From assembly GCA_038747915.1 (NCBI GenBank), contig JBCDJJ010000003.1, forward strand, positions 19,740 through 83,739: a stretch of DNA of 64,000 nt. The letters run 5' to 3'. Positions 20,880 through 37,405 of this stretch are shown in pieces (position 1 is the stretch's first letter; each line of letters opens with the position of its first letter). Made by a program: the position numbers and the translations under genes. The notes below the pieces were generated by a model that was given only the letters and a program-made list of their open reading frames with translations, was not told the origin of the DNA and searched no databases. Origin of the DNA: Planctomycetota bacterium. GTDB lineage: Bacteria > Planctomycetota > Phycisphaerae > Phycisphaerales > UBA1924.

Positions 20880-23324
20880 TCAGGCGGCTTCGCGTTCGGC
20901 GCTGTCGTCCTCGGGGAGCTCGGCCACGGCATCGGTTTCGGCATCGGTGGGATCGCCCGGTGTGCCCGGTCCTGGTGGGTCATCCGGCGCCTCGCGCCGG
21001 GCGATGGCAGCGAGGCGGGCTCGGTCGAGCAGCGCGGTGGGATCAAGCACGAGCCAGACCTGGCCGTTGTCGCCGAGGCAGGCACTGGCGACGAGGTCGC
21101 AGTGAGCGAGCCCGTCCTCGATGTGCTCGAGCACGAGCTCTTGCTGACCGAGCACGGTGGTCACGAGCGCCGCAGCGAGCGCATCGTTCTCGCCCATGAG
21201 CAGCGCGACCGCTGGCGAGGAGTCGGGCTCGCCGGCGAGAATCGCGGGGAGGTCGATCACGGAGAAGATTTCTTCGCGGACGCGGAGTGCCGGTTCGCCG
21301 CCGCAGGTATGGAGGCCGTGGTCGTCGACGCGGACGATCTCGCGGATCGCCGAGAGCGGCACAGCGTATCGCGCGCCGCCGATATCGATGACCATGGCGT
21401 CAACCACCGCCCCGCGGACGGGGACCGCGAACGAGACGCACAGCCCACCATCGTCGGCCGCGCCGCATGAGATGCTCACGCCCATCGCTTCGAGCGAGTC
21501 GGCGGCGAGCTTGAGCGGGTGATCCTCGTTTCGCGGGTCGAGTTCGAGGATGGCCTCGGGGAGACCTTTGCCATCATCGGTGATTGTGAAGCGGATCCGG
21601 CTTCCTTCGCTGTGGACCGCGACCTGGATGGTGCCCTGCTCGGGTTTGTCCGCGGTGGCCCGCTCGTCGGTGGTTTCGATGGACGTGGTCGCGCTGTAGC
21701 GGAGAATCTGCAGCAATGCCTCGGCGAATAGCTGGGTGTCGAAGCGATCGATCGGGATCGAACCGCCGATGGTGTTCACGACCACCTCGCGGTCGTTGAT
21801 GCGTGACAGGTCGGTGACCAGCGTGCCGAAGCCCTCGATCGTGTTCCCGATCGGCGCGGTCCTCATAATCTGGACTGCTTGCTGAAGCGTTCGCGTGAGG
21901 CGGTCGACCTCGGCGGTACACCGGTTGAGTTTCTGGCGTGTCTCCTCTGGGGCGCTTTGACTCATCTCGAGCATGGTCTGCGTCGCGAGTCGGAGCATGT
22001 TCTTGGCAACGACGAGCTGGCGTGTCGCATCGATCACGCCGCTCAGTTCAGGATGTGTGATATCGATCGTGGCGTCATGAGACTCGTGGGTGGCGGCGCT
22101 GCCGTGGGGCCCATCATCCGTGGATCCCGATGCGGCGGCCTCGGCCGCGATTTCGTCGAGTCGATCGAGATCGGGCAGCTCTTCAAAGGTTTCGACGACA
22201 CCGTCCAGTTCGAGGACGCGGTCGGGATCGTTGCGATGCCACGCGGTGAGCACGGGGTGCATCGTCTCGCCATTCAGCAGGGTCTCGATCCGCTCGGCGA
22301 ATCGGTTGAGTGGCCATCGGGTTTCCATGCCCACGCGCAAGCCGCTCGCGAGCTGCTCGATGAGTGCTTCGGCGGCGCGGACCCGGACGGTCAGATCGGG
22401 TATCGCTCCGTCTTGCACCGCAAGGGCCCGAACGGCGACCGATGCCAGGGTCTCGAGCAACTGCTTCAGGCTCGGGAACCCGAAGTGATCGGCGGTACGC
22501 ATGAGCCCGTCGGTCATCTCTCGGAGCGACTCGCACGCGTCCTTGCGCGATGAGAGCGCCGCCATGCGCTCCGCGAGTTCGTCGAGCTTCGTCGCGCTCT
22601 CCGAGAGCTCGATCGCGAGGAACTGCACCAGCTCCATCTGTGCGGTGTCGAGTGTGAGGGGGACAGTCCCCCAGTCTTCGGCGTCGTTCGAGCCATCGTC
22701 GTCCCCGGCGTCGTCCGCCATCATGGCAGCGACTTGCTCGGGTGTGAGCATCATCGGCCCACCGCTGGAGAGCGTTGCAGCGGGGTCGGCGTCGACCGGC
22801 GCTGGTGCGGGCTCGGCATCCGCCGGTGGGTCGACCGTGGGAGGATCAACCGCGGATTCCTCAAGATCGGTGTCGGCCGGTGTGCCGTCCGGTTCCTCGG
22901 ATATGAGGTCGGACGCCGACTCGGTAACGGGGGCCTCCTCGGCGACCGACTCGGGTGTCGTATCGATTGTCTCCGGCGCCTCAGCGATCTCTGGCGCCTC
23001 GGTTGTCTCATCGGATGCGGGGAACTCGGATGCGCCAGCGTCCGGTTCGCGCTTGTCGGCGCTGACCTCGTCCGGTTCGTGAGGGTCCTCTGCCGGGGTT
23101 GCCGGATCTGGCGTGGACTCGTCGGTCGGCGCTTCTGGTGGTGTCAGATCGATGGGGTCAACGACCGATTCATCTGTCGCGGGTGCATCCGATGAATCGC
23201 TTGCATCGGGCGGTGCGCCGTCTGCCTGAGGGTCGACTGGCGTCATCTCGGCCGGCGCATCGATCGCCTTGTTGGGCGCGGGCACGTCGGGTGCGGCACC
23301 GTCGGGTGTCGGCGTTTCGCTCAT
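20880..23324 (-). CDS. CheA-like histidine kinase (HPt - HATPase_c - CheW-like) with a roughly 230-aa acidic Pro/Asp/Glu-rich N-terminal extension
   Basis: HPt-like helix region ELVQFLAIELSESATKLDEL, CheA-type kinase core GSRIRFTITDDGKGLP, and C-terminal CheW-like VVDAMVIDIGGARYAVPLSAIREI. No receiver domain, and no cheY/cheW/MCP genes nearby. Confidence 0.8.
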   Translation of the reverse strand: MSETPTPDGAAPDVPAPNKAIDAPAEMTPVDPQADGAPPDASDSSDAPATDESVVDPIDLTPPEAPTDESTPDPATPAEDPHEPDEVSADKREPDAGASEFPASDETTEAPEIAEAPETIDTTPESVAEEAPVTESASDLISEEPDGTPADTDLEESAVDPPTVDPPADAEPAPAPVDADPAATLSSGGPMMLTPEQVAAMMADDAGDDDGSNDAEDWGTVPLTLDTAQMELVQFLAIELSESATKLDELAERMAALSSRKDACESLREMTDGLMRTADHFGFPSLKQLLETLASVAVRALAVQDGAIPDLTVRVRAAEALIEQLASGLRVGMETRWPLNRFAERIETLLNGETMHPVLTAWHRNDPDRVLELDGVVETFEELPDLDRLDEIAAEAAASGSTDDGPHGSAATHESHDATIDITHPELSGVIDATRQLVVAKNMLRLATQTMLEMSQSAPEETRQKLNRCTAEVDRLTRTLQQAVQIMRTAPIGNTIEGFGTLVTDLSRINDREVVVNTIGGSIPIDRFDTQLFAEALLQILRYSATTSIETTDERATADKPEQGTIQVAVHSEGSRIRFTITDDGKGLPEAILELDPRNEDHPLKLAADSLEAMGVSISCGAADDGGLCVSFAVPVRGAVVDAMVIDIGGARYAVPLSAIREIVRVDDHGLHTCGGEPALRVREEIFSVIDLPAILAGEPDSSPAVALLMGENDALAAALVTTVLGQQELVLEHIEDGLAHCDLVASACLGDNGQVWLVLDPTALLDRARLAAIARREAPDDPPGPGTPGDPTDAETDAVAELPEDDSAEREAA

Positions 23325-23672
23325 GTGCGTGTTCCAGTGGACGCGTCGATCAACAGTTCGGACAGAGAGCAGCATCGGTCGGCGCCGGATCAACGAACCA
23401 GTGCGAATCCCATCGCGGCGCGCCTCAAGATTGATTGTGATGATCGCACACCGTTTCGAGTGCGCCCGTCCCTGCAACCGGTGGGCCGCGGGTTGGGTCG
23501 TAGCGAAATCTCGGTGCGGCCCTGGATCAAATCGAAATCAAGCGCGGGAAGTCAGTGAGAGAGGCGGTCGATATCGCTCGCGGCGTTGCCGGCGTGTTGC
23601 CGCGCGGCGCACTCCGCCGGCTCGCGTGAGTTGGGGAGCACAGCACTGGCAGCACTGCAAGGAGCCAGAACC
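23325..23672. promoter_or_regulatory. Divergent intergenic region between the cheA-like gene and gvpA (putative shared promoter/operator region)
   Basis: 348-nt non-coding gap between divergent starts. AGGAG SD sits 8 nt upstream of the gvpA ATG. Confidence 0.3.
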
Positions 23673-23888
23673 ATGGCCAAGGTTCAGAAGACGACGGACT
23701 CCTCGTCGCTGGCGGAAGTCGTGGATCGCATCCTCGACAAAGGCATCGTGATCGATGCCTTCGCCAAGGTTTCGCTGGTCGGCATCGAGCTCGTCTCGGT
23801 CGAGGCCCGCGTGGTGATCGCATCCGTCGAGACGTACCTCAAGTACGCCGAGGCGATCGGTCTGACCACATCGGCGACCGCTGTCTGA
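23673..23888 (+). CDS. gvpA: Gas vesicle structural protein GvpA
   Basis: 71 aa: [63 protein letters not shown]. This is a canonical GvpA sequence. Confidence 0.9.
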
Positions 23889-23944
23889 GGACGGCGACGA
23901 TCGCGCGCGGTTGTTCGGTTCTCCCCGCCGTGCCGCCGCGCTCC

Positions 23945-23977
23945 CCGACGGAGCCTGCGCTCCGCACACTCCGTCGG
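23945..23977 (+). terminator. Hairpin downstream of gvpA (candidate attenuator/partial terminator)
   Basis: 9-bp inverted repeat CCGACGGAG ... CTCCGTCGG with a 15-nt loop, followed by CGTTCGTCC. A gvpA-proximal attenuator would fit the usual excess of GvpA transcript (inference). Confidence 0.25.
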
Positions 23978-24009
23978 CGTTCGTCCCCGCACCCATCGGC
24001 GAGCCTCGC

Positions 24010-24786
24010 ATGAGCGAGTCATCACACCACACCGACTCGGTGGGCGATCTGCTCGCGCGGGTCCGCGCCGAGCGGCTCCGCGCCGCCCAGCAGGCTGCCG
24101 AGCAGCGGCGAGCCTTTCTTGCTGAGCTTCGCAGCAGCGTCGAATCGATCCGGCAGGATGTTCGCGCGGTGGTCGACCGAGCCGCCGAGGACCCGCCCGT
24201 CGTCGAGGAAGCAGCACCAGAGACGGCATCAATGGCATCCGACGCTCAGCCATCCGAGCCACCGATCCTGAACCAGCACATGACCCAGGAGGAGTACCCC
24301 ATGCCGAAGCACACGAAGTCGTCGGCCGCTGCTAAAGAGCAGTTCTTCTCATCCCCCGAGGTGTCCGACGCCTCGGGAGCCGCCGAGGCCCCGGTCGAGT
24401 CACCCAAGAAACGGTTCTACAGCTCTCCCGATGTCGCTGCGATTGATATCGAGGCGGCCGAGCCGATTGATGCTGCCAACTCGCCGAAGCAGCAGTTCTT
24501 CTCGGCCCCGGCGGTTGGTGGTGCCGGCACAGCGCCGACGGCCGCTCCGGACCCTGCGCCGAGCAGCCCGAAGTCGGCATTCTTCTCATCACCCCCGGTC
24601 GGTGGTCAGGCGACGAGCGGTGACGCGACAGCGAAGCAGCAGTTCTTTCGTTCGCCGAGCGTTGACGGTGGCTCGGCCCCATCGACCGACTCGCCGAAGT
24701 CATCGTTCTTCTCCTCTCCGCAGGTTGGTGACTCGGTCGAGCCACCCCGCGACGAGAAGGGACGATTCGTCTCCAAGGTGGCCTGA
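24010..24786 (+). CDS. Repeat protein with six copies of a K-x-x-F-F-S-S-P-x-V motif (GvpC-position protein, novel)
   Basis: N-terminal helical domain DLLARVRAERLRAAQQAAEQRRAFLAELRSSVESIRQD. Repeats KEQFFSSPEV, KKRFYSSPDV, KQQFFSAPAV, KSAFFSSPPV, KQQFFRSPSV and KSSFFSSPQV occur about every 25 aa. Confidence 0.6.
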   Translation: MSESSHHTDSVGDLLARVRAERLRAAQQAAEQRRAFLAELRSSVESIRQDVRAVVDRAAEDPPVVEEAAPETASMASDAQPSEPPILNQHMTQEEYPMPKHTKSSAAAKEQFFSSPEVSDASGAAEAPVESPKKRFYSSPDVAAIDIEAAEPIDAANSPKQQFFSAPAVGGAGTAPTAAPDPAPSSPKSAFFSSPPVGGQATSGDATAKQQFFRSPSVDGGSAPSTDSPKSSFFSSPQVGDSVEPPRDEKGRFVSKVA

Positions 24787-24810
24787 TCCTGTGGCAAAGG
24801 GACAGACACG

Positions 24811-25662
24811 ATGAGCACCGACACCGGATCATCGCGCAACCCGGACCTCTCACGCCGGGTTGCTGACCTGCTCGCCGAGGCACGCCAGGCCCGGCTGGCC
24901 GCGAGCCGTCTCGCCTCCAACGCGCGCCGCGAGGCGCTCGCTGCGATTCGCGAGGAGGTGAGCACAATCCGCTCAGCGAGCGCCGAGGCACTCGCTCGTC
25001 CGGCCACGGAGGCGGTGCCGACAACGGACACGATCGATGTGCCGGTTGACCAAGAGGCCCCGTCGTCTGCGTTGTCAGACGATGTGAGCTCGCCGATCGC
25101 TGGTGAGGATGCAGCCGTTGAGCACGAGGCATCGACGCCTGAAGCGCCCGCGATCCTCGACCCACCTGCGGCGATCGAGTCACCCGCGGTCCCCGAGACG
25201 CCCACTATCCCTGAGTCACCCGCGGTCTCCGAGGCGCCTGTGGTTGCCGAAGCGCCCGCGGCATCCGCGGTACCGACACCGGTCTCCGGGCCGGTTCCGC
25301 CGGCCGAGACACCCGTCGAGCGTGAGGTGTCATCGCCGGAGCCTCCCACACCGCCGGCGTTGCCGGCGCGTGCAGCGAGCGCGCCTTCCGGCGAATCACC
25401 GCCATCAGAAGATCTCAGGGATGAGACCATCTGGGCACTTCCCGAGGTCGCGCCTATCCCGATGAACGCGTCCGCACCATCGCGGCACGCGTCGCCACCT
25501 GTTGCCGCAAACGATTCCCCCGCGCCCAAGACGCCGGCCTCGTCCGAAGATGCGCCGACGGATCCGGGCGCGATCCCATCGCCGCAGACGCTGCCCCCGC
25601 CGTCGGGCCCGTCGGTAATGCCCGCCCCGCCGGCGACGCTTCCACCGATGAAGCGCGCATGA
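24811..25662 (+). CDS. Pro/Ala/Glu-rich low-complexity protein with an N-terminal helical domain paralogous to 24010..24786
   Basis: N-terminus VADLLAEARQARLAASRLASNARREALAAIREEVSTIRS is homologous to the neighbour. It is followed by PESPAVPETPTIPESPAVSEAPVVAEAPA-type repeats. Confidence 0.55.
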   Translation: MSTDTGSSRNPDLSRRVADLLAEARQARLAASRLASNARREALAAIREEVSTIRSASAEALARPATEAVPTTDTIDVPVDQEAPSSALSDDVSSPIAGEDAAVEHEASTPEAPAILDPPAAIESPAVPETPTIPESPAVSEAPVVAEAPAASAVPTPVSGPVPPAETPVEREVSSPEPPTPPALPARAASAPSGESPPSEDLRDETIWALPEVAPIPMNASAPSRHASPPVAANDSPAPKTPASSEDAPTDPGAIPSPQTLPPPSGPSVMPAPPATLPPMKRA

Positions 25663-25805
25663 TGCAGGCAGCGGAGCGCGGCGCCCCCCGCTTTGGGCGG
25701 GAGCCCCGCACAGCCGGATCATGATCGAGCCCGAAGTGAAGACGTTTGGATGAAGCGTCGCGGCGCCGCTCCACTTGTGCCGGTCCGCTGCCGATAACGG
25801 TCGCC

Positions 25806-26795
25806 ATGACCAACGTCGAATCCGAATCCGCGGTCCGGCGCACCCACGCCATCGAGTTCGAGGCCTCCGAGGACTTCGTGCTCACCGCCGAGGTGCAGGC
25901 GATCACCGAGCGAGCCCTGGCGTACCTTGCGGCGGGCTACGGCATTCATCTCGCGGGCCCGGCTGGAACGGGAAAGACAACGCTCGCGTTTCATATCGCG
26001 GCGCAGCTCGGCAACCCGATCACGCTCGTGCACGGCAATGATGAGTTCGGCAGCTCCGACCTCGTCGGCCGTGACACGGGCTACGCGCGCTCGAGCGTGG
26101 TCGACAACTTCATCCACTCGGTGCTCAAGACCGAGGAGCGGGTTGACATCGCCTGGTCGGACAATCGGCTGACCACCTGCTGCGAGCAGGGGCACACGCT
26201 GGTGTACGACGAGTTCAACCGGACGAGCCCCGAGGCCAACAACATCCTGCTGAGCGTGCTCGAGGAGGGCATTCTCGATCTCCCGCGGTCCGACGGCGGC
26301 GAGCAGTACCTCGAGGTGCACCCGAACTTTCGTTGCATCCTGACATCTAATCCTGAGGAGTACGCCGGTGTACATCGGACGCAGGATGCGCTGCTCGACC
26401 GTGTCGTGACGCTCGATGTCGGTCATTACGATGAGGAGACCGAGACGCGGATCACCGCGGCCAAATCAAATCTGGACCTTGTTGATGCGGCCACCATTGT
26501 GGAGTTGGTCCGCACCATGCGGCAGGTGGGCGAGAGCCCGACACGCCCGACGATCCGGGCCGCCATCGCGATCGCACGTGTGTGCGCTGCCAGGGGGGCC
26601 AGCATCGATGCACACGACCGGTTCTTCCGCGCGGTCTGTCATGATGTGCTGCTCGGCGCACTGCGCACGGGCGGGTCCGGCCGCGGGGTGACCGCGAAGA
26701 AACTCGATGAGCTGATCGATCTCGTGCGGCAGGCTCGGGCGGTGGCCCCGCCGAAGCGGCTCGAGCGCACGGAGGCACGCGATGCGGCGGCATGA
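25806..26795 (+). CDS. gvpN: Gas vesicle protein GvpN (AAA+ ATPase)
   Basis: Walker A GPAGTGKTTLAFHIAAQLGNPITLVHGNDEFGSSDLVGRDTGY. GvpN/CbbQ-type AAA. Confidence 0.85.
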   Translation: MTNVESESAVRRTHAIEFEASEDFVLTAEVQAITERALAYLAAGYGIHLAGPAGTGKTTLAFHIAAQLGNPITLVHGNDEFGSSDLVGRDTGYARSSVVDNFIHSVLKTEERVDIAWSDNRLTTCCEQGHTLVYDEFNRTSPEANNILLSVLEEGILDLPRSDGGEQYLEVHPNFRCILTSNPEEYAGVHRTQDALLDRVVTLDVGHYDEETETRITAAKSNLDLVDAATIVELVRTMRQVGESPTRPTIRAAIAIARVCAARGASIDAHDRFFRAVCHDVLLGALRTGGSGRGVTAKKLDELIDLVRQARAVAPPKRLERTEARDAAA

Positions 26796-26825
26796 GTCGA
26801 CGCGATCGCCCCAAGGACGCCTGGC

Positions 26826-27152
26826 ATGAGCGGACCACCACGCGGACTCAACTCGATCAAGACAGCGGCGGGCGCCCGCGGCCGCGGTGCGCGTCTCTCG
26901 TCGATCTACTCGCGCATCCTGACGCTCGAACTCGAGCACGAGCGGCGCGCCATGGAGCGAGAGAACGCCATGCGCCGCGTGAGTTCCGCGGAGATCCGTA
27001 TGAAGCGGATCGAGGCCGAACTCGCGGCCCTTCGCGACCTCGCCGACAGCGCGGCCCGTGACACGGACGCGGCAGACCTTCGTACAGCGGAGATCCGCGA
27101 TGTCAAGCCTGTTGTGATGACCAAGCCCGATCGCGTCCGCCACCGGTACTGA
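26826..27152 (+). CDS. Hypothetical coiled-coil protein (GvpO-position)
   Basis: 108 aa, charged and helical: ELEHERRAMERENAMRRVSSAEIRMKRIEAELAALRDLAD. AAGGA SD 7 nt upstream. Confidence 0.45.
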   Translation: MSGPPRGLNSIKTAAGARGRGARLSSIYSRILTLELEHERRAMERENAMRRVSSAEIRMKRIEAELAALRDLADSAARDTDAADLRTAEIRDVKPVVMTKPDRVRHRY

Positions 27153-27169
27153 ACACGAGAGCGAACCAC

Positions 27170-27487
27170 ATGAAGATCAACTGCATCCACTGCGGGCACA
27201 ACTTCTCGATCGATGCCGCGTACGACGACTACGAGGGTCTCGTCCGGTGTTCGACGTGTGGGGGCTTGCTCGAGATCAAGACATCCAGCGGTGCGTTGCG
27301 CGCCGTTCGCCCCGGCGCCATCCATGGCTCGGCACAACATGCGCCCGCCGAGACATCAACGACCGATCCCGAGGTTGAGCAGATGCGCCGTGAACTCGAG
27401 CGTCTGACGGCGGAGGTCCGCGAGGCGGCAGCGGAGGCGGTCCCGGCTCCCGAGTCGCCGTCGGGCCGTGCGGTCAAGCCGCTCTAA
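27170..27487 (+). CDS. Zinc-ribbon protein
   Basis: 105 aa, with CxxC...CxxC: MKINCIHCGHNF...VRCSTCGGLLEI. Confidence 0.5.
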   Translation: MKINCIHCGHNFSIDAAYDDYEGLVRCSTCGGLLEIKTSSGALRAVRPGAIHGSAQHAPAETSTTDPEVEQMRRELERLTAEVREAAAEAVPAPESPSGRAVKPL

Positions 27488-27536
27488 TGTGATTCATGAA
27501 CTGGCAGGTCACCCCAGCGAGTACGAGCGAGAACCG

Positions 27537-28364
27537 ATGAGCGACGAATTGCATGGCCTGTACTTCTACGGCATCGCACGCGGCGCCACCGTGGCTGAGC
27601 AACTCGCTGGGGCGCCGAGCGGCCTCGACGGGCGCCCGGTGTTCGCGGTTGTTGCGGGCGCACTCGCAGCGATCGTCAGCCTTGCGCCGGATGGCCGTCT
27701 CCGCCCGCAGCGTCGGGCGCTCGGCGCCCATCAGAGCGTGCTCAAGCACATCGGTGCACGCGGGCCAGCTCTGCCGGCATCGTTCGGCGTGATCGCGCCG
27801 AGCAGCGGGGGGCTCGCAGCGGTGCTGCGGGCCAATGCGGACACACTCGACGAGCAGCTCACAGAGACCGCGGGGTGTGTCGAGATGGGTGTGAAGCTCC
27901 GATGGGACGTCGACAACGTATTCGCCGACTTCGTCGATCGGTACGAGGTGCTCCGTGAGGCGCGCGTGGGTATCGCTGAGGGAGCGGCCAGCCGGGACGA
28001 ACTCATCGAGATCGGTCAGTTGTTCGAGCGGCTACAGGGCACCGAGCGCGACGAGGCACTCGCTGCGGTCCGTGGCACGATCGACACGGCCGCGCGCCGG
28101 GTCGTCGCCAACCCGCCGCGAAGCGAGAACGAGGTGCTGAACATCGCGTGCCTGGTTGAGCGCGACCGCGAAGACGGATTCGATGCAGCGGTGCAGCGGG
28201 CCGCGGAGTCGTTCGATGAACGGTTCGCCTTCGAGATTAGTGGGCCATGGCCGCCGTTCAACTTCGTCTCCCTCCGTCTCGAGTTCGATCACGATGCCTC
28301 GGGCGACGAGGCGGCGTTCGAGGTGATCGGTGAGCCGCACGTCGAAGTGAGCGAGGCCGCCTGA
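27537..28364 (+). CDS. gvpF: Gas vesicle protein GvpF/GvpL family
   Basis: LYFYGIARG...HQSVLKHI...PASFGVIAP, the GvpL_GvpF fold signature. Confidence 0.8.
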   Translation: MSDELHGLYFYGIARGATVAEQLAGAPSGLDGRPVFAVVAGALAAIVSLAPDGRLRPQRRALGAHQSVLKHIGARGPALPASFGVIAPSSGGLAAVLRANADTLDEQLTETAGCVEMGVKLRWDVDNVFADFVDRYEVLREARVGIAEGAASRDELIEIGQLFERLQGTERDEALAAVRGTIDTAARRVVANPPRSENEVLNIACLVERDREDGFDAAVQRAAESFDERFAFEISGPWPPFNFVSLRLEFDHDASGDEAAFEVIGEPHVEVSEAA

Positions 28365-28594
28365 TGTTCATCGTCGACGACATCCTGTTCTCTCCCGCGA
28401 AGGGCTTCATGTGGATCATGCGCGAGCTGCACAAGGCGGCGAGTCAGGAGCTCGAGTCCGAGGCGGACCGCATTACAGCGGAGCTCTCGAGTCTGTACAT
28501 GCGGCTCGAGACCGGTGAGATCACCGAGGACGAGTTCGACGAGCGCGAGACCGAGCTGCTCGACCGCCTAGACGAGCTGCAGGCAGAGGAGTAG
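28364..28594 (+). CDS. gvpG: Gas vesicle protein GvpG
   Basis: MFIVDDILFSPAKGFMWIMRELHKAA. Its start overlaps the stop of gvpF (TGATG). Confidence 0.75.
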   Translation: MFIVDDILFSPAKGFMWIMRELHKAASQELESEADRITAELSSLYMRLETGEITEDEFDERETELLDRLDELQAEE

Positions 28595-28599
28595 GCACG

Positions 28600-30582
28600 A
28601 TGTCGAGGGATGCCGGGCGACCCCCGCGATTCATCGAAGACGATCGGCTCGCGATGCTCCTGTTCGGTGGCAAGGGTGGTGTCGGCAAGACGACCTCCGC
28701 TTGCGCCGCAGCGGTGCGCCTCGCGATGGATCGTCCTCAGACGAGCGTCACGCTCATCTCCACCGATCCGGCGCACAGCACGAGCGATTGCCTCGGCGAT
28801 ACGGACGATCTTCCAGAGAACCTCGAGCTTGTCGAGCTTGATTCGGCTGCGGAGCAGGCTGCATTTATCTCCGAGCACGCGGATCAGCTGCGTGAGATCG
28901 CACTCCGCGGCACGTTCTTCGATGAGGAGGATGTCGACACATTCCTCGAACTCGCGGTGCCGGGTGCGGATGAGCTGATGGCGTTCCTGACACTGGCGCA
29001 CCACGCGGAGCGCATCGAGAACTCGCCGGGAGAGCCACGCGTGGTCGTGGTCGACACCGCCCCGACCGGCCACACGCTCCGGCTGCTCGCGATGCCCGAT
29101 CTGGTCGATCGATGGCTCGGCGCACTCGATGCCTTGCTCGCCAAGCACCGGTTCATGGCTTCGGCGTTCGGGTCAACGGGTGTGGATGAGGTCGAGCTGT
29201 TCCTTGCTCGGGTGACCGGGCAGGCCGAGTGCTTTGGCCGATTGTTGCGTGACGGTTCACGGTGTCAGTTCGTGCCGGTGTTCACACCCGAATCGCTCGC
29301 GGTGGCCGAGACGAATCGCTTAGTGACCGAACTCGAGCGGCTGGGCGTGGCATGCGACGAGGCGGTGCTGAACCGGCTTGTGCCGTCAGGTGAAGGCGAC
29401 CTTGGCGAAGCGATTCGCGCCGCGCAGCATCGCCAGCTCTCGGCGCTCGATGATTCGGTGCTCTGCCTCGACATCTGGGGACTGCCGGTGGCCCCGAGCG
29501 AGCCTGTGGGTCGGGCAGCACTTGCATCGTTGTGGGACCCGGGGCTTGCACCGGGCGGCATCACCGCGTGGCTTGCGAGCGATGTCGAACACGAGCCCGC
29601 GGAGGCACCGCGCGTCATGCAGGGCCGCGCATTGTCGCTTGATCCCAAGCGTCGGCTGCTGCTCGTGGCGGGTAAGGGCGGGGTGGGGAAGACGACGGTC
29701 GCATGCGCCGCGGCGATGGCCCTTGCTGCGGCGCGAAAGAAGGGCGATGTGCTCGTCGTCTCAACGGACCCTGCGCACTCGGTGGGTGATTGCTACGGCG
29801 TGTCGCTCACCGGGGAGCCGATCGAGATCGTGCCGCGCCTGCGAGCGATGGAGATCGACGCCGAGGCAGAGTTTGATCGGTTCCGTGAGCAGTACGAGCA
29901 GGAGATCGACGCGGCCCTCGGCTCCCTGATCGAGGGGGGCGACCTGACGTTCGATCGCGAGGCGATGTCTCGACTCGTGGATCTCGCGCCGCCGGGCATC
30001 GATGAGCTGATGGCCCTCGTACGCATCATCGACGAGCTCGACGGGGTCGTCGGCCGCACCATCGTGTTCGATACCGCGCCGACCGGGCACCTGCTCCGCC
30101 TGCTCGAGACGCCGGAGCTGGTCGAGTCGTGGCTAGCCGGCGTCTTCAAGCTCATGCTGAAGTACGAGTCGGTCGTTCGGGTCCCCCGGTTGCGTGATCG
30201 GTTGATCGAGCTGAGCAAGGGGATCAAGTCCGTGCGCACGATGCTGGGCACCGCAAAGTCGTCGTCACTCGTCGCGGTTTCCATCCCCACAAGACTGGCG
30301 GTCGAGGAGCTGAGCGATCTCGCACTCGCGATCCGTTCCATGGGTGTGGCCTTGGCGGGGGTGGTGATCAACCGGTGTACACCGGATGGTGGGGGTGTCA
30401 TCCTGAGCGGACAGGCCGAGGCGGAGCGCCACTGGATCGAGGTGGCCCGACGTGCGGTGCCGGATGCTGCACCGATATGCCTTACATGGGGGGGTGAGCC
30501 GGTGGGGATCGAGCGCCTTGGTGCGCTCGGGCGCGAACTCTTTGCTGTGCACCGTGGTGGTCTGCTTTCCTCAGCCGCATGA
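28600..30582 (+). CDS. Tandem two-domain ArsA/Get3-like P-loop ATPase embedded in the gvp cluster
   Basis: Two halves, each with a deviant Walker A GKGGVGKTT (LLFGGKGGVGKTTSACAAAV and LLVAGKGGVGKTTVACAAAM) and the ArsA/Get3 switch motif DTAPTGHT (twice). Confidence 0.85.
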   Translation: MSRDAGRPPRFIEDDRLAMLLFGGKGGVGKTTSACAAAVRLAMDRPQTSVTLISTDPAHSTSDCLGDTDDLPENLELVELDSAAEQAAFISEHADQLREIALRGTFFDEEDVDTFLELAVPGADELMAFLTLAHHAERIENSPGEPRVVVVDTAPTGHTLRLLAMPDLVDRWLGALDALLAKHRFMASAFGSTGVDEVELFLARVTGQAECFGRLLRDGSRCQFVPVFTPESLAVAETNRLVTELERLGVACDEAVLNRLVPSGEGDLGEAIRAAQHRQLSALDDSVLCLDIWGLPVAPSEPVGRAALASLWDPGLAPGGITAWLASDVEHEPAEAPRVMQGRALSLDPKRRLLLVAGKGGVGKTTVACAAAMALAAARKKGDVLVVSTDPAHSVGDCYGVSLTGEPIEIVPRLRAMEIDAEAEFDRFREQYEQEIDAALGSLIEGGDLTFDREAMSRLVDLAPPGIDELMALVRIIDELDGVVGRTIVFDTAPTGHLLRLLETPELVESWLAGVFKLMLKYESVVRVPRLRDRLIELSKGIKSVRTMLGTAKSSSLVAVSIPTRLAVEELSDLALAIRSMGVALAGVVINRCTPDGGGVILSGQAEAERHWIEVARRAVPDAAPICLTWGGEPVGIERLGALGRELFAVHRGGLLSSAA

Positions 30583-30640
30583 CGAGCCGATAACCGCTAT
30601 CGATCGGTCCCGTGTTGTCGTCCTTTGGGAGTTCGTCTCG

Positions 30641-30874
30641 ATGCCGCGCACGCGTCTTCACCAAGTAGCTCGTTCGTCCGGGAGGGCGCGGTGTATCGAG
30701 CCGCAGGAGACGATCCTGTGCGACGCGCTTGACCGTGTGCTCAGTGTCGGTGTGGCGGCGCGTGGCGACCTCGTGATCGCTGTGGCGGATGTGCCGCTGA
30801 TCAAGCTGAGCCTGGGTGTGTTGCTGGCCTCGGTCGAGACCGCCGAGGGCCGGATCGAGAGGGGGACACGATGA
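30641..30874 (+). CDS. Small GvpA-family protein (GvpS/GvpM-like), not called in the ORF track as a separate gene
   Basis: 77 aa: ILCDALDRVLSVGVAARGDLVIAVADVPLIKLSLGVLLASVETAEG matches the GvpA/J/M/S core (LxxxLDRxLxxGVxxxGDxxIxxxxVxLxxLxLxxxxASVE). ATGA overlap with the gvpK start. Confidence 0.6.
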   Translation: MPRTRLHQVARSSGRARCIEPQETILCDALDRVLSVGVAARGDLVIAVADVPLIKLSLGVLLASVETAEGRIERGTR

Positions 30875-31218
30875 CCCGATGCCCGACCGAACTCGAACCG
30901 CTGCTCTCGGCGCTGGAAGACGTGACCGCGGTGGACGACTCCGAGGCGGATGCCTCGCCGCGGCTCAACGTCGACCCCGCGGATGTGAAAAAGGGGCTCG
31001 GTCAGCTCGTGCTGACCGTGGTCCGGCTGCTGCACGAGCTGCTCGAGCGTCAGGCGATCCGTCGGATCGAGTCGGGCTCGCTGACCGATGACGAGGCCGA
31101 CCGACTCGGCACGACGATGAAGCTCCAAGCCGAGGAGATCGAGAAGCTCGCCGGCTACTTCGGGCTGCGCACCGAAGATCTGAACATGGACCTCGGCCCC
31201 CTCGGCAAGTTGATGTAA
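30871..31218 (+). CDS. gvpK: Gas vesicle protein GvpK
   Basis: GLGQLVLTVVRLLHELLERQAIRRIESGSLTDDEADRLG. Confidence 0.85.
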   Translation: MTRCPTELEPLLSALEDVTAVDDSEADASPRLNVDPADVKKGLGQLVLTVVRLLHELLERQAIRRIESGSLTDDEADRLGTTMKLQAEEIEKLAGYFGLRTEDLNMDLGPLGKLM

Positions 31219-31228
31219 GGCGCGTGCG

Positions 31229-31621
31229 ATGGCGATTCAGCAGGGTGGCCCGACCCACCTGAGCACAACCAACATCGCGGACCTACTCGAGCGTGTGCTC
31301 GACAAGGGTGTGGTCATCGCGGGTGATGTCAAGCTCAAGCTGCTCGACATTGAACTTCTCACGATTCAGCTCCGTTTGGTGGTGTGCTCGGTCGACAAGG
31401 CGCAGCAGATGGGCATCGACTGGTGGTCGCAGACCAAATCGCTGTGCGCACCGGAGGAGACACCACCGATCGAGGCGGGTACAGAGGCCGAGACCAAGCC
31501 CGCGCTGCCGTCGCCCGAAGAGCACGAGGCGCTGCAGCAACGAGTGGAGGAGCTTCAACAGCAACTCGAGCAGATCCAAACCGAGCAGCAGACCCCCTGG
31601 CGGAGACCCAAGACCCCATGA
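31229..31621 (+). CDS. gvpJ: Gas vesicle protein GvpJ (GvpA family)
   Basis: LADLLERVLDKGVVIAGDVKLKLLDIELLTIQLRLVVCSVDKAQQMGIDWW. Confidence 0.85.
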   Translation: MAIQQGGPTHLSTTNIADLLERVLDKGVVIAGDVKLKLLDIELLTIQLRLVVCSVDKAQQMGIDWWSQTKSLCAPEETPPIEAGTEAETKPALPSPEEHEALQQRVEELQQQLEQIQTEQQTPWRRPKTP

Positions 31622-32247
31622 TCGCCCGTGAGGCGCCCGGAGAGCGCCGACTCGTTGTCATCCCGATGCTGCACACCGAGACGGACCTCGGCGAGCTATC
31701 AGACCGTGTTCGGCGTGAGACCGTCGCCCATGCCGGTCGACGAGCGTGGGAGCGCAAGCAGCGTGCGATCGAGCGGCTATGGAGCGAGATCACCGAATGG
31801 TCGGAGCGTGTTGCGATCCCTGAGGCCGGCATGCGGCTCTACCAGGATGGTCTGCCGGTCTGCGGACCGGGCGAGCGCGATGTCACGCGCACCATCGTGG
31901 AGGATCTCGGTACACGCGGGAGCCTGAACCATCGCATCCTGCTGAGTCTCATCGAGCGCGGGGCGACGCTCGAGGGCACCGAGTCGCCAGAGTTGCTGCT
32001 CGCCGAGTATCGCTTGGCCCGGGGCGAGGCGGAGCAGGATGGTGATGGCACCCCCGCTGCGCACGATCTGCTCGAGCAACGTGACCGGTTCATCGCGCAG
32101 CGCATCGATGCCACGCTCGAGCCTCACCAGGTCGGCGTGCTGTTCATCGGGTATTTGCACAACATCCCGCCGCACCTGCCCGCAGGCATCACGGTCGAGC
32201 ACCCCTTCGACGTTGCCGAGGCCCTCAGCCAAGGAGCACACGCATGA
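31618..32247 (+). CDS. Hypothetical gvp-cluster protein
   Basis: 209 aa, coupled by ATGA overlaps to gvpJ upstream and hsp20 downstream. No recognised motif. Confidence 0.5.
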   Translation: MIAREAPGERRLVVIPMLHTETDLGELSDRVRRETVAHAGRRAWERKQRAIERLWSEITEWSERVAIPEAGMRLYQDGLPVCGPGERDVTRTIVEDLGTRGSLNHRILLSLIERGATLEGTESPELLLAEYRLARGEAEQDGDGTPAAHDLLEQRDRFIAQRIDATLEPHQVGVLFIGYLHNIPPHLPAGITVEHPFDVAEALSQGAHA

Positions 32248-32780
32248 GCACCGCCAACACCCCACCCGGATCGTCCGGCCACCCGTCGGGCGGCCAGCCC
32301 GCAGGGTTCCTTGATGGTCTAACTCGGCTGCTTCACACGATCGGCGAGCTCGCGGACAAGGGTGCCGAGCTGAAAGAGTCCGGACTGTTCGAGACAGAGT
32401 CGGGCAAGCAGGGCCGCGTGAACGTCGGCTTCTCGATCCGCACCGCGGGGACCGGTCAACCGGGCGAGGGCGGGCTCAAGGTCGAGCCGTTTGGCAACGT
32501 GCGGCGCAACCGCGAGACGGGCGAGGCGGAACTCGCTGCGGTGCGCGAACCGATCGTCGATGTGTTCGACGAGGAGGGCGAAGCGCTGCGTGTGGTGGCC
32601 GAACTGCCCGGTATCGATGAGAGCCAGGTGACTCTCCGCGCCGATGGGCGCACGCTCGTGCTCGAGGCCGAGGATGGCTCGAAGCGCTACCACGCCGAGG
32701 TCGAGCTCCCCCGCGAGGTGCGCGTGGAGGAGGCATCGATCTCGTGCAATAACGGGATCGCGGAGATCACCTTTTCTTGA
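32244..32780 (+). CDS. Hsp20/alpha-crystallin family protein (GvpH-like position)
   Basis: ACD: ALRVVAELPGIDESQVTLRADGRTLVLEAE...YHAEVELPREV...GIAEITF. AAGGAG SD. Confidence 0.85.
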   Translation: MSTANTPPGSSGHPSGGQPAGFLDGLTRLLHTIGELADKGAELKESGLFETESGKQGRVNVGFSIRTAGTGQPGEGGLKVEPFGNVRRNRETGEAELAAVREPIVDVFDEEGEALRVVAELPGIDESQVTLRADGRTLVLEAEDGSKRYHAEVELPREVRVEEASISCNNGIAEITFS

Positions 32781-32816
32781 GCGTGTGGACCACGCCTGTA
32801 TCACGATGAGTCGGAG

Positions 32817-34979
32817 ATGCGCCGGATGATCCGCAAGAGCCCTCCCGCAGCCGAGCTGACCCGCCGGGTCGCCGAGGCCCAGCCGAAGGATGTTGGCCGC
32901 GCCATCGCGCGCCTCGATCCCTCGGATCTGCGTGAGCTCGGTCTCGCGACGGGCGACACCGTCGAGGTGGTCGGTGCGCGGACGACCGTGTGCCGAGCGC
33001 TGCCGACACGGAAGTCCGACCGGTCCGCCGGCTCGGTTCACATCGATGGGATGACGCGCGAGAACGCGCGCGTCGGTGTCGATGCGGAGGTGGCGATTCG
33101 GCCGGTGCCGTGCCCACGGGCCGAGCGTGTGGTTCTTGAGCCAGAGGCCCGCCGCCCCGATGGGAAGGAGCTGGCGTACATCGCATCGCTGCTCGATGGG
33201 CTGCCGGTTTCGTCTGGTGACCGCGTGCGGGTGAACACCTTCGGTAATCGCCCGATGCACTTCCGTGTGAAGCGCACGATGCCGGATACGGCGTGCGTCG
33301 TCGCCTCGAGCACCGCGCTGGAACTCGTGGGCGGGTCATCGAGTAGCAGCCGAGCGAAGCGGGACGCACCCGCTGCAACGCCGGCGAGCGTCTCGTACGA
33401 GGATGTCGGTGGTCTGGGCAAGCAGGTGCATCGCATCCGGGAGACGATCGAGCTCCCGCTGCGCTTCCCCGAGGTGTTCGATCGCTTGGGGATCGATCCG
33501 CCTAAGGGCGTGCTGCTGCACGGCCCGCCCGGGTGCGGCAAGACACTCATCGCCCGCGCGATCGCGCACGAGACCAATGCCAACTTCTTCGTGATCTCCG
33601 GGCCCGAGATCGTACACAAGCACTACGGCGAGTCGGAGGCCAATCTCCGCAAGGTGTGGGCCGAGGCGACGCGTCAGGGTCCATCGATCGTGTTCATCGA
33701 CGAGATCGACTCGATCGCGCCCAAGCGGGAGCAGACACAGGGCGAGGTGGAGAAGCGGATCGTCGCGACGCTTCTTACCTTGATGGACGGGCTCGAAGCC
33801 CGGCGGGGTGTTGTCGTGCTCGCTGCGACTAACCTGCCGAACAACCTCGACCCCGCCCTGCGGCGACCCGGGCGATTTGACCGGGAGATCGAGATCCCGG
33901 TGCCCGACGCGATCGGTCGTGGTGAGATCCTCGATGTGCATACGCGCGGCATGCCGCTCGCGGCCGATGTTGATCTGGATCGAGTCGCCCAGATTACACA
34001 CGGGTGCGTCGGGGCCGATCTCGAGTCACTGTGCCGTGAGGCAGCGATGCACTGTCTCCGCCAGATCATGGGGGAGATCGACTTCGTCACCGGTGATGTG
34101 CCCTACGAGAAGCTCGCCTCGCTCACGGTCTCGATGAACGATTTCGTGGCCGCGTTCGCCGAGGTCACGCCGAGCGCTCTGCGTGAGGTATTCGTCGAGA
34201 CACCGCGTGTGTCGTGGGACGATGTCGGCGGTCTCGAGGATGTAAAAGCCAAACTGGTTGAATCGGTCGACTGGCCCGTGCGGCACGCAGCACTCTTTGA
34301 AGAGGCGAAGCTCCGTCCACCCCGCGGTGTGATGCTCGCCGGCCCTCCGGGTGTGGGGAAGACGCTGATCGCCAAGGCCACCGCGAGCCAGCTCGGCGCC
34401 AACTTCATCTCGGTGAAAGGCCCGGAGCTGCTGTCGCAGTTTGTGGGCGAGTCGGAGCGAGCGATGCGCGAGGTGTTCCGAAAGGCGCGGCTGGCCTCGC
34501 CATGTGTGATTTTCCTTGACGAGGCGGATGCGCTGCTGCCTAAACGCTCCGGTTCAGCGACCGATGGCGGCGTGCGCGAGCGTGTGGCGGCTCAATTCCT
34601 CACGGAGATGGACGGCATCGAGGAGCTGCGCGGCGTGCTTGTGCTCGCGGCGACGAATCGGCTGGACATCATCGATCCTGCGGCGCTCCGGCCGGGACGG
34701 TTCGATCACGTGATCGAGCTCGGCCTGCCGACACCGGTCGATCGCGAACGCATCTTCGCGGTCCATCTGCGCGATCGCCCGACGGGCACGGCAGTCACAG
34801 CTGAAGTGCTGGCGGAGCTCGCCGGCGATGTGAGCGGAGCAGAGATCGCGGGTGTGTGCGACCGGGCCGCGATGCTCGCGGTGCGAGACAGCGTGTCGGG
34901 CGGTGCCCCGATCCGAATGACGCTCGAACACTTCCGGGGCGCAATGCGCGACATCCTCGGCGTGGAGATCGAATCATGA
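32817..34979 (+). CDS. CDC48/VAT-type AAA+ ATPase (N-domain plus D1 and D2)
   Basis: CDC48 N-domain TRRVAEAQPKDVGRAIARLDPSDLRELGLATGDTVEVVG. Two Walker A motifs, GPPGCGKTLIARAIAHE and GPPGVGKTLIAKATAS, plus two second-region-of-homology segments. Confidence 0.85.
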   Translation: MRRMIRKSPPAAELTRRVAEAQPKDVGRAIARLDPSDLRELGLATGDTVEVVGARTTVCRALPTRKSDRSAGSVHIDGMTRENARVGVDAEVAIRPVPCPRAERVVLEPEARRPDGKELAYIASLLDGLPVSSGDRVRVNTFGNRPMHFRVKRTMPDTACVVASSTALELVGGSSSSSRAKRDAPAATPASVSYEDVGGLGKQVHRIRETIELPLRFPEVFDRLGIDPPKGVLLHGPPGCGKTLIARAIAHETNANFFVISGPEIVHKHYGESEANLRKVWAEATRQGPSIVFIDEIDSIAPKREQTQGEVEKRIVATLLTLMDGLEARRGVVVLAATNLPNNLDPALRRPGRFDREIEIPVPDAIGRGEILDVHTRGMPLAADVDLDRVAQITHGCVGADLESLCREAAMHCLRQIMGEIDFVTGDVPYEKLASLTVSMNDFVAAFAEVTPSALREVFVETPRVSWDDVGGLEDVKAKLVESVDWPVRHAALFEEAKLRPPRGVMLAGPPGVGKTLIAKATASQLGANFISVKGPELLSQFVGESERAMREVFRKARLASPCVIFLDEADALLPKRSGSATDGGVRERVAAQFLTEMDGIEELRGVLVLAATNRLDIIDPAALRPGRFDHVIELGLPTPVDRERIFAVHLRDRPTGTAVTAEVLAELAGDVSGAEIAGVCDRAAMLAVRDSVSGGAPIRMTLEHFRGAMRDILGVEIES

Positions 34980-35806
34980 ACCAATCTGGTGGTCCTGCCG
35001 TCAAGTCGCGGTTTGCGGTCGAGCCCAAGCCGGAGTCGTCGCCGTCGCCTATCTACGCAGCGGCGCTGCTACCGCCGGATGCGCCCGCGATCGAGGCACC
35101 GGGGATCGAGCAAGGCCTGACGCTCCGCACGGTGGAGATCGGCGGGTGGTGTGCGTTTGCAGGTGTGGTTGGCCTCTCGATGTTCATGGGCGACGACGCC
35201 GAGCAACGGCTCCAAGACCCTGCGTGGCTCACCCCGCGTGCGATCGCGCACGAGCGGGCACTGCTCGAGGCCCGGACACACGTCGACCTGCTCCCGCTCC
35301 CATTCGGCACGGTGTTCCACTCGCTCGACTCGCTCGCAGACCGGTGCGATCGTCACGCCGAGGTACTCGCCGACTTCTTCGCCAGAACCTGCGGCGCCTC
35401 CGAATGGTGCATCAAGGTGACAGCGAGCCGGCGTGACGCGATCGAGCACGAGGTCGAGTCGCGTTTAAACCTCGAAGTCGGGGCCGAGGCGAGCGGCGCC
35501 GCGTACCTCCGCGCTCAGGCACGTCGCCGCGCGATCGAGACCGAGGTGCTCCACGATCTCTCGGCCTTCGCCGATGAACAGGCCGACCGGCTCGATGCGA
35601 TCGCTCGCGATAGCTCGGATCGGCGTCAGACATCGGGAGAGCCCGACATCGAGACACTCGCGCACTGGGCATTCCTTGTCGATCGCCGCGAGAGCGAGCG
35701 GGTGTCCGAGCTCACGCGAGAGATCAACCACGGTGCGCCCTCCGGCGTGCGTTTCGATCTCGCGGGCCCGTTCCCGCCGTACAGCTTCACCCCACGGTTG
35801 AGCTGA
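34976..35806 (+). CDS. Gas vesicle protein GvpF/GvpL family (second copy)
   Basis: WLTPRAIAHERALLEARTHVDLLPLPFGTVFHSL. ATGA overlap with the cdc48-like stop. Confidence 0.75.
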   Translation: MNQSGGPAVKSRFAVEPKPESSPSPIYAAALLPPDAPAIEAPGIEQGLTLRTVEIGGWCAFAGVVGLSMFMGDDAEQRLQDPAWLTPRAIAHERALLEARTHVDLLPLPFGTVFHSLDSLADRCDRHAEVLADFFARTCGASEWCIKVTASRRDAIEHEVESRLNLEVGAEASGAAYLRAQARRRAIETEVLHDLSAFADEQADRLDAIARDSSDRRQTSGEPDIETLAHWAFLVDRRESERVSELTREINHGAPSGVRFDLAGPFPPYSFTPRLS

Positions 35807-35944: not shown

Positions 35945-36349
35945 TCAGCCGGCGACTTTGACGAAGATCCAGTTCGTCTTACTGGCCGGATCGCGGTAGA
36001 GGTGGATGTTGACCGCGGTGGGCTTCATCTTGAAGGTGAAGGTGTAGGGGAAGGCGAGGTTGAGCTGATCGGCGGCGACGCCCTTCTTGAACGAGCCGAA
36101 GAAGAGGCCGTTGTTCGAGCAGGGGGCGACCTGGGTGAAGAAGTTGCGGCCCTCGGCCTGGCTGGCGGGGATGCCAGCGAGGTTCTGCTCGTACTGGTTG
36201 TAAAGCAGGATCTTGCCGGCTTCGTCGGTCTTGATGATCCCGAAGTCGTAGCCGTCCGCGTCGCCGCGGGAGAGGTTTCCGAGTCGAGAGAACAGTTCGT
36301 CGGGGACAAAGGTGCCGTTCTGGCTGGCGGTGTTCATCATGACGCTCAT
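35945..36349 (-). CDS. pyp: Photoactive yellow protein (PAS-domain blue-light photoreceptor)
   Basis: FGIIKTDEAGKILLYNQYEQNLAGIPASQAEGRNFFTQVAPCSNNGLFFGSFKKGVAADQLNLAFPYTFTFKMKPTAVNIHLYRDPASKTNWIFVKV. It has the NFF..VAPC chromophore-Cys motif and close colinearity with Halorhodospira PYP. Confidence 0.85.
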   Translation of the reverse strand: MSVMMNTASQNGTFVPDELFSRLGNLSRGDADGYDFGIIKTDEAGKILLYNQYEQNLAGIPASQAEGRNFFTQVAPCSNNGLFFGSFKKGVAADQLNLAFPYTFTFKMKPTAVNIHLYRDPASKTNWIFVKVAG

Positions 36350-36690
36350 TCGTGTGCTCCTTGATTCAGATGCTCTTTCCATTCGGCCCGCATGACGGGC
36401 TTGTCGTCCACGATCTCGAGCGAGATCGACTTCTCGGAGAACTGCGCATCCAGGTGCTCAGCGAGCTGATTCACCTGCACGAGCAGGGCGGCGGCGGTCG
36501 ATCCGTCGGCATCGGCGATGCCTCCGAATCGCTGGTAGAGGTCGCAGAGCTGCGCCTCCAGACTACGGACCATGTTGAGAATCCCGTCGGCATCGCACAC
36601 ACCGATCTGGCTCGCGAGCTGCTCACGCTCGGCGTAGATCGATTCGAGCTGGTGCAGCGTGCCGCCGGTCTCGTTGCTGATGTTCTGCAT
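36346..36690 (-). CDS. Hypothetical protein co-operonic with pyp
   Basis: 114 aa. Its stop overlaps the pyp start by 4 nt. No recognisable domain. Confidence 0.5.
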   Translation of the reverse strand: MQNISNETGGTLHQLESIYAEREQLASQIGVCDADGILNMVRSLEAQLCDLYQRFGGIADADGSTAAALLVQVNQLAEHLDAQFSEKSISLEIVDDKPVMRAEWKEHLNQGAHE

Positions 36691-37134: not shown

Positions 37135-37405
37135 GGGGCTTCTCCGATGGGTTGGCTCACCACAGGACTGAGGAGTTGGTCGGTCGAGGCGCCTCGCTCG
37201 TTCATCTCAACGACAACCCTTCATGCAAATCGATGTAAATCCCCAAGGACCGGGGAGCACCCGTATGCCGTCGCGCACCGATCGACCGGCAATCGAACCA
37301 CGGAGCACGAAGCACACCGTGAAGGGTCGCTTCCTCTCATCGAGCGCACCCGAGAGGCCGATAGCACAGACGCGCACGCCGGGCGACGAGACGCGAGTGA
37401 CCGAG

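Follow-up and report, generated by a model that had tools for sequence, protein, structure and literature searches.

Paired proteins at the GvpC position of a Planctomycetota gas-vesicle cluster share a 40-residue repeat unit with syntenic relatives

Gas vesicles owe their strength and shape to GvpC, which is also the main handle for engineering them as acoustic reporters. In its canonical form it is encoded directly 3' of gvpA and before gvpN, and it is built as a tandem array of amphipathic alpha-helical repeats with conserved Leu, Phe and Arg (five repeats of 33 aa in Anabaena, seven of 32-39 aa in Halobacterium). From a structural perspective, the GvpC helices run along the GvpA ribs and touch alpha2 through Leu, Phe and Arg (PMC9994262, PMC10185304). 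The binding face of the Anabaena repeat comprises L4, F11, L12, R19, Q26, L30 and F33, and the relevant dimensions are 1.5 Å per residue and 12.1 Å per GvpA subunit (PMC9994262). Anabaena GvpC shortened to two repeats still binds, but its ratio is lower and it strengthens less (PMC9501494). Another described vesicle protein is GvpU, the clustering factor of Bacillus megaterium, in which an acidic and aromatic disordered region tunes vesicle clustering (bioRxiv 10.1101/2023.06.01.543273). Here we describe two open reading frames (ORFs), ORF1 and ORF2, that occupy the GvpC position in a gas-vesicle gene cluster of a Planctomycetota bacterium. They lie in a stretch of 64,000 nucleotides from contig JBCDJJ010000003.1 (assembly GCA_038747915.1), hereafter the window. 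Each encodes a single helix that matches a 40-residue repeat unit of the corresponding proteins of syntenic relatives, followed by a long disordered tail.

Both genes lie between gvpA and gvpN, as canonical gvpC does, with the coordinates and frames given in a preliminary description of this DNA (Table 1). They are separated by a compact gap of 24 nucleotides. An independent assembly contig from Logan, L003, is 100% identical across 23831-26129, and both genes are called alike on it. The GC content by codon position matches the coding expectation in ORF1 (0.67/0.56/0.75), while the profile of ORF2 is flat. The start of gvpN was set by a 329-aa NCBI protein (P0010, 'MAG: gas vesicle protein GvpN [Planctomycetota bacterium]') that is 100% identical and lies on an 83.7-kb contig; among the 5.8 billion proteins searched, the second-closest GvpN shows only 66% identity, and the window therefore comes from a sparsely sampled Planctomycetota lineage. 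The 14 residues of the GvpA alpha2 segment are identical in gvpA of four other loci (L001, L004, L005 and L006).

In the AlphaFold2 models each protein consists of one helix (aa 11-60 in ORF1, with a predicted local distance difference test score, pLDDT, above 93; aa 10-62 in ORF2), the remainder being disordered. The helix is straight, about 50 residues and 75 Å long, and is followed by roughly 200 disordered residues in both cases. Smith-Waterman alignment of the two helices yields a score of 76; shuffles that preserve composition give 33 +/- 6 and never reach the observed value (0/2000), and BLASTP gives E = 0.001. On these alignment statistics ORF1 and ORF2 are shown to be paralogues through their N-terminal helix, in agreement with the homology proposed in the preliminary description.

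Syntenic relatives were found by a GvpN protein search followed by inspection of the gene context of the matches; when genome and metagenome contigs were scanned by pattern with GvpN, only relatives at 54-57% identity came up. In all seven relatives with this gene order, the gvpA-gvpN interval holds exactly one gene, of 261-383 aa. In the five with readable DNA, the encoded protein is made of three to five tandem helical repeats and a Pro/Ala-rich tail, with 37-40 aa, in most cases exactly 40, from the start of one unit to that of the next. The consensus of the unit reads W-V-x-x-L-R-x-E-V-x-x-M/L-L-x-x-F/L-R-x-x-R ... R-R-x-F-L-x-x-L/V/I. The hydrophobic period of these proteins, 3.61-3.64, equals 40/11, so that successive repeats keep their apolar faces aligned, and conserved Arg residues flank this face. 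An unannotated 40-residue-repeat family is thereby identified in these clusters, one that the GvpC models of both Pfam and NCBIfam miss; in this natural lineage the repeat of the GvpC-position protein has 40 residues instead of 33.

The helices of ORF1 and ORF2 belong to this repeat. A hidden Markov model (HMM) of the unit, built from 20 units of the five relatives without ORF1 and ORF2, was searched against the 888 six-frame ORFs of the window together with the two annotated proteins. It ranked ORF1 first (E = 9e-8) and ORF2 second (E = 4e-4), followed by a spurious 54-aa ORF at 0.004 and a fourth match at 0.41. Positions 8-40 of the model align to aa 10-42 of ORF1 and aa 16-48 of ORF2, that is, in the same register, and in each protein a weak partial second unit follows, covering the first 12-20 residues (aa 44-55 in ORF1). 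ORF1 keeps every conserved position of the stripe (V11, L14, L15, V18, R19, R22, R33, R34, F36, L37 and L40); ORF2 retains most of them, with Ala replacing two aromatic or Leu positions. The hydrophobic periods are 3.60 for ORF1 and 3.66 for ORF2. A second model, made from the terminal repeats and again without the two ORFs, gave 2.8e-7 for ORF1, 3e-3 for ORF2 and 0.098 for the third match. A weaker result with the same two top ranks came from a profile of the shorter helical proteins encoded downstream of gvpA in L001 and L004-L006 (ORF1 1.5e-4, ORF2 5e-3, third match 0.078). The preliminary description presented the two as novel proteins in the GvpC position; that they would be wholly new and share nothing but the location is not supported, since the helix matches one repeat unit of the relatives and the beginning of a second.

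Pairwise comparisons agree with the profiles. Over 43 aa, ORF1 has 49% identity (E = 2e-7) to L014c, from the relative with the closest GvpN among those with readable DNA, and it also aligns to three repeats of L009c, each a different one. Between ORF2 and one of the repeats in L012c the identity is 40% across 52 aa (E = 2e-4). In shuffle tests, z values of 7.6 and 9.4 were obtained, and 0/1000 shuffles attained the observed score. The window and its relatives thus share the genomic slot, the repeat unit and the arrangement of a helix followed by a disordered Pro/Ala-rich tail, but differ in that the relatives have one gene with three to five units, whereas the window has two genes with about 1.3 units each and acidic tails. 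By its layout L014c looks like an intermediate form: no more than three units are clear, and the Pro/Ala tail, about 125 aa long, closely resembles the one in ORF2. In two other lineages the arrangement is different again: in L001 (6016-7557, 7601-7927) and L005 (6154-6525, 6522-6884) the helical protein downstream of gvpA is followed by a DnaJ-type CxxCxGxG zinc-finger protein and then by gvpN. In the 513-aa helical protein of L001, repeats of 33 and 40 aa alternate and the tail is of the KAAAEREAK type; its counterpart in L005 has 123 aa.

The comparison with canonical GvpC is of a different kind. In the Pfam search (PF01304 for GvpC), ORF1, ORF2 and five relatives gave no GvpC match at E <= 10, and the NCBIfam GvpC models matched neither the two ORFs at E <= 0.1 nor ORF1 and the relatives at E <= 10, with the limit, in both searches, that the HMMER filters may drop very weak matches. 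Likewise, the 40-residue repeat model matched neither the published Anabaena consensus repeat nor the GvpC-position proteins of other lineages (L001, P0001-P0007). The earlier statement that the two proteins resemble no known GvpC repeat consequently stands for the Pfam and NCBIfam GvpC models, and falls for the GvpC-position proteins of related clusters. The design is nevertheless shared, as it is also in canonical GvpC an amphipathic helical repeat with conserved Leu, Phe and Arg. A stripe of hydrophobic residues and Arg is present in the ORF1 and ORF2 helices, and the HMM offers no alignment to the Anabaena consensus for a position-by-position comparison. By our calculation from the published dimensions (PMC9994262), 40 residues amount to about 60 Å or about five GvpA subunits, compared with about four for the 33 aa of the Anabaena repeat. 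Canonical GvpC is a tandem array, whereas ORF1 and ORF2 have a single helix of about 50 aa each, and the Anabaena protein has no counterpart to their long disordered tails. For the Anabaena consensus, the peak of the hydrophobicity spectrum lies at 3.30 rather than near 3.64, and periodicity was therefore not used as evidence of kinship.

The tail of ORF1 is characterized by a motif of the form K..[FY][FY].[SA]P.V, which starts at aa 109, 133, 160, 188, 209 and 230 with a spacing of 21-28 aa; the six FFSSP-type repeats of the preliminary description are thus present, and a degenerate seventh copy follows (Table 1). This region is predicted to be disordered, with block-mean pLDDT values mostly of 40-51. 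The tail is rich in Ala, Ser and Pro and has a net charge of -11, with 26 Asp/Glu, 15 Lys/Arg and 14 aromatics, mostly as FF pairs. As DNA, the motif copies are just 60-76% identical: the S, P and V positions use varied codons, including TCN versus AGC for Ser, and the codon pairs divide into 48 that are synonymous but different and 47 that are identical. From this mixture of codons at conserved positions it follows that the motif is old and has been kept by selection at the protein level, which the codon comparison shows to act on the FF motif.

When the window and 15 loci were translated in all six frames, a relaxed version of the motif was found six times in ORF1, once in the GvpC-position protein of L001 and nowhere else, so that the six-fold FF motif is, among the sequences compared, unique to ORF1 and an orphan feature. 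The match in L001 (RRAFFGPSPED) and a similar element in L005 (HRAFFGRD) both lie exactly at the junction of helix and tail. Moreover, the motif is similar to the R-R-x-F-L/F element with which every helical repeat ends, followed by a helix stop. One copy of ORF1, 'KQQFFSAP' (24487-24516, aa 160-169), also resembles 'SQQFLSAT' of the Anabaena GvpC consensus, a stretch too short for statistics; the Anabaena segment holds the GvpA-contacting residues F11 and L12 (PMC9994262).

ORF2 is Pro/Ala-rich, with 19% Pro and 19% Ala, and carries ES/TPxxP hexapeptide repeats, as had been recognized with the PESPAV/PETPTI-type repeats of the preliminary description. They are encoded by an 18-nucleotide unit in four copies (ESPAVP/ETPTIP/ESPAVS/EAPVVA). 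Its tail (aa 67-283) has a net charge of -25 and 24% Pro. With respect to GvpU, the likeness of these proteins is one of composition and design only, namely a shell-binding part, putative in the present proteins, combined with a disordered acidic and aromatic region such as the tail of ORF1. GvpU differs in its cluster position and in having a folded domain, which binds GvpB from alpha2 to the C-terminal region. The occurrence in the tails of I-P-V-type motifs binding small heat-shock proteins, or of p97-binding motifs, was also considered and was dropped for lack of evidence.

Searches beyond the locus returned little. A word-index search with full-length ORF1 gave no homologue, with the limit that low-complexity words may have taken up the 8000 candidates considered. 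An exhaustive phmmer search of the same sequence against 1.84 billion representative proteins gave no credible homologue and two matches only, both large eukaryote-like Glu/Lys-rich repeat proteins with 18% identity and without the FF motif, which were rejected as spurious. A profile search with an alignment (A1) returned seven short proteins only, three of these being the proteins encoded after gvpA in L004-L006 or near matches to them. For ORF1, searches of Pfam, NCBIfam and PDB gave nothing relevant, and neither did tblastn with ORF1 and L009c against a plasmid collection. In the searches run, nothing credible was thus found outside gvp loci, where the preliminary description would have counted broadly distributed homologues against its proposal that the two proteins are functional analogues binding the GvpA shell. 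Binding to the GvpA shell is plausible.

The explanation that we favour, with a confidence only a little above even, is that ORF1 and ORF2 are duplicated and truncated derivatives of the GvpC-position gene of this lineage, with the helix lying on the GvpA rib and the tails directed outward. The ancestor would have been a single GvpC-position gene with three to five tandem 40-residue amphipathic repeats and a Pro/Ala-rich disordered tail. This gene would have undergone a tandem duplication, after which each copy would have lost all but about 1.3 repeats while the tails expanded and diverged, acidic disordered tails taking the place of the basic character of the whole protein. The remaining helix may lie along the GvpA rib as the GvpC helices do, its hydrophobic and Arg stripe facing alpha2 over about six subunits, and would probably bind less strongly than a protein with several repeats. 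The tails would then project from the vesicle surface, that of ORF2 possibly as a negatively charged steric brush. The FF motifs, given their likeness to the R-R-x-F-L/F element closing the repeats and its placement at the L001 and L005 junctions, are proposed as multivalent hydrophobic contacts; speculatively, they might either peg into other sites on GvpA or adhere to one another, thereby bundling vesicles; for the latter option the sole precedent is GvpU.

Several observations weigh against this explanation. A sequence link to canonical GvpC is not shown by the model and profile comparisons, and BLASTP of ORF2 against L014c, from the closest relative, gave no match. The proteins of the relatives are basic (isoelectric points, pI, of 9.5-11.7 in L007c, L009c, L012c and L013c), whereas ORF1 has a pI of 4.9 and ORF2 of 4.3, and the function may therefore have shifted. 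Furthermore, binding by Anabaena GvpC was shown with two repeats, and about 1.3 units fall short of this; by analogy with that protein, stable binding to the shell is uncertain. Finally, the ORF1/ORF2 pair is carried by one genome only.

Among the alternatives, the proteins might be soluble assembly or chaperone factors, whose helix binds GvpN, GvpF/L, GvpH/Hsp20 or unassembled GvpA and whose tails solubilise or recruit. The helix is indeed short, at 1.3 units, the cluster encodes possible partners (GvpH/Hsp20, the CDC48-type AAA and the ArsA/GET3 ATPase), and haloarchaeal GvpC fragments bind the accessory proteins F, H, I, K, L, N and O in split-GFP assays (PMC9501494). We nonetheless regard such a role as unlikely: the same stripe is repeated three to five times in the relatives, which suits a periodic surface better than a single globular partner, and no partner-specific motif was identified. 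That the two genes are decaying remnants of a duplicated gvpC-type gene, with repeats lost, tails drifted to low complexity and function gone, would agree with the loss of most helical repeats, with the low-complexity tails, and with a single known carrier genome and the lack of a full-length homologue. We judge decay quite improbable, however, as both frames are intact, the stripe is retained in both copies, the spacing of the genes is compact at 24 nucleotides, and the six FF copies are conserved as protein while their synonymous sites are scrambled.

The remaining two explanations deny the kinship or the genes themselves. If ORF1 and ORF2 were new proteins unrelated to the GvpC type, which converged on the GvpC position and whose helix likeness is due to composition or chance, the want of any Pfam, NCBIfam or PDB match and of anything credible in the exhaustive full-length ORF1 search would be accounted for. 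The profile and shuffle results have already largely refuted this idea and leave it very improbable, since independent profiles put both ORFs at the top of the window, the shuffles exclude a compositional cause, and both ORFs are in register with the repeat unit over positions 8-40. Chance open frames in GC-rich DNA, with no real genes at all, are barely conceivable: there are long overlapping ORFs on the opposite strand (24332-25183, 24606-25529) and the codon-position GC of ORF2 is flat, but the homologous helices sit in the called frame, the conservation of the motif is codon-aware, the independent gene call agrees and the relatives hold a gene at the same place.

Returning to the derivation from a repeat-bearing GvpC-position gene, it can be extended to a more specific and doubtful proposal, which we offer tentatively. 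ORF1 would be a gas-vesicle surface protein of a kind not described before, a minimal GvpC-type anchor helix with a sticker-and-spacer tail, whose FF motifs would peg into pockets of hydrophobic character lying between the alpha2 helices of GvpA, at distances and across ribs beyond the reach of a rigid GvpC helix, or would bundle vesicles as GvpU does. ORF2 would act as a competing acidic brush, and the ORF1:ORF2 ratio would tune packing or strength. In a wider perspective, this one genome suggests that a GvpC-position protein can be reduced to a minimal anchor helix with long disordered tails. Should the helix bind the shell, it would define a minimal natural binding unit, and in the FF-motif tail the vesicle surface would carry a ready-made module for multivalent contacts.

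Table 1. Coordinates of the genes and sequence elements considered here, in window positions or, for the relatives, in positions of the named locus.
Feature	Coordinates	Strand	Remarks
gvpA	23673..23888	+	major shell protein, presumed partner of ORF1/ORF2; PF00741 5e-16, NF006874 3e-37
ORF1 (258 aa)	24010..24786	+	ORF and translation; same gene call on Logan contig L003
ORF1 amphipathic helix (aa 9-60)	24034..24189	+	about 1.3 of the 40-residue units
Six K-x-x-F-F-S-S-P-x-V motifs (aa 109-239)	24334..24726	+	11-18-aa Ala/Ser/Gly/Pro/Asp/Glu linkers between
Degenerate seventh motif KGRFVSKVA	24757..24783	+	ORF1 C-terminus
ORF2 (283 aa)	24811..25662	+	ORF and translation; same gene call on Logan contig L003
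ORF2 amphipathic helix (aa 10-62)	24838..24996	+	about 1.3 repeat units
18-nucleotide tandem repeats in ORF2 tail	25159..25248	+	hexapeptide E-S/T/A-P-x-x-P/S/A
gvpN	25806..26795	+	TIGR02640 1e-101; 3' boundary of GvpC position
Zinc-ribbon protein	27170-27487		
Tandem ArsA/GET3-type ATPase	28600-30582		
GvpH/Hsp20-like protein	32244-32780		
CDC48-type double AAA ATPase	32817-34979		
GvpC-position gene of L007	3983-4843		40-residue repeats
GvpC-position gene of L009	3622-4665		40-residue repeats
GvpC-position gene of L012	2877-3782		40-residue repeats
GvpC-position gene of L013	199-1284		40-residue repeats
GvpC-position gene of L014	59-934		40-residue repeats

The whole gas-vesicle gene cluster spans 23673-35806 of the window on the + strand. 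Its order is gvpA, ORF1, ORF2, gvpN, a 108-aa helical protein, the zinc-ribbon protein, gvpF/L, gvpG, the tandem ArsA/GET3 ATPase, gvpK, a gvpJ-like gene, an unknown gene, GvpH/Hsp20, the CDC48-type double AAA ATPase and a second gvpF/L. A scan for terminators and promoters over 23300-26000 found nothing exceeding shuffled controls. The 108-aa helical protein (26826-27152), encoded immediately 3' of gvpN, has a counterpart by sequence in L001 and also in L005; in L007, L009, L012 and L014 the same slot after gvpN is taken by a gene of 114-119 aa.

On the 5' side, a large CheA-like protein with a CheW domain is encoded divergently from gvpA (20880-23477, - strand). A divergent CheA-like gene also lies 5' of gvpA in four relatives, namely L007, L009/L010, L012 and one JGI contig; the protein combines H-kinase_dim and CheW domains (L007 1-3253, L009 1-2636 and L012 1-2166, - strand). 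Possibly it acts as a conserved regulator that controls vesicle formation.

A photoactive yellow protein (PYP) is encoded where the gvp cluster ends on its 3' side (35945-36382, - strand), with E = 1e-26 to PDB chains of this protein. Beside it, at 37223-38848 and 38574-40358 on the + strand, an AMP-binding ligase is encoded together with an aromatic amino-acid lyase (PF00221, 4e-136), and the three genes look like a full set for a sensor and the synthesis of its chromophore. A linkage of PYP and gvp genes has been described in Rhodobacter capsulatus and Loktanella (PMC3646047, citing Kyndt 2004); here the linkage occurs in a Planctomycetota metagenome-assembled genome.

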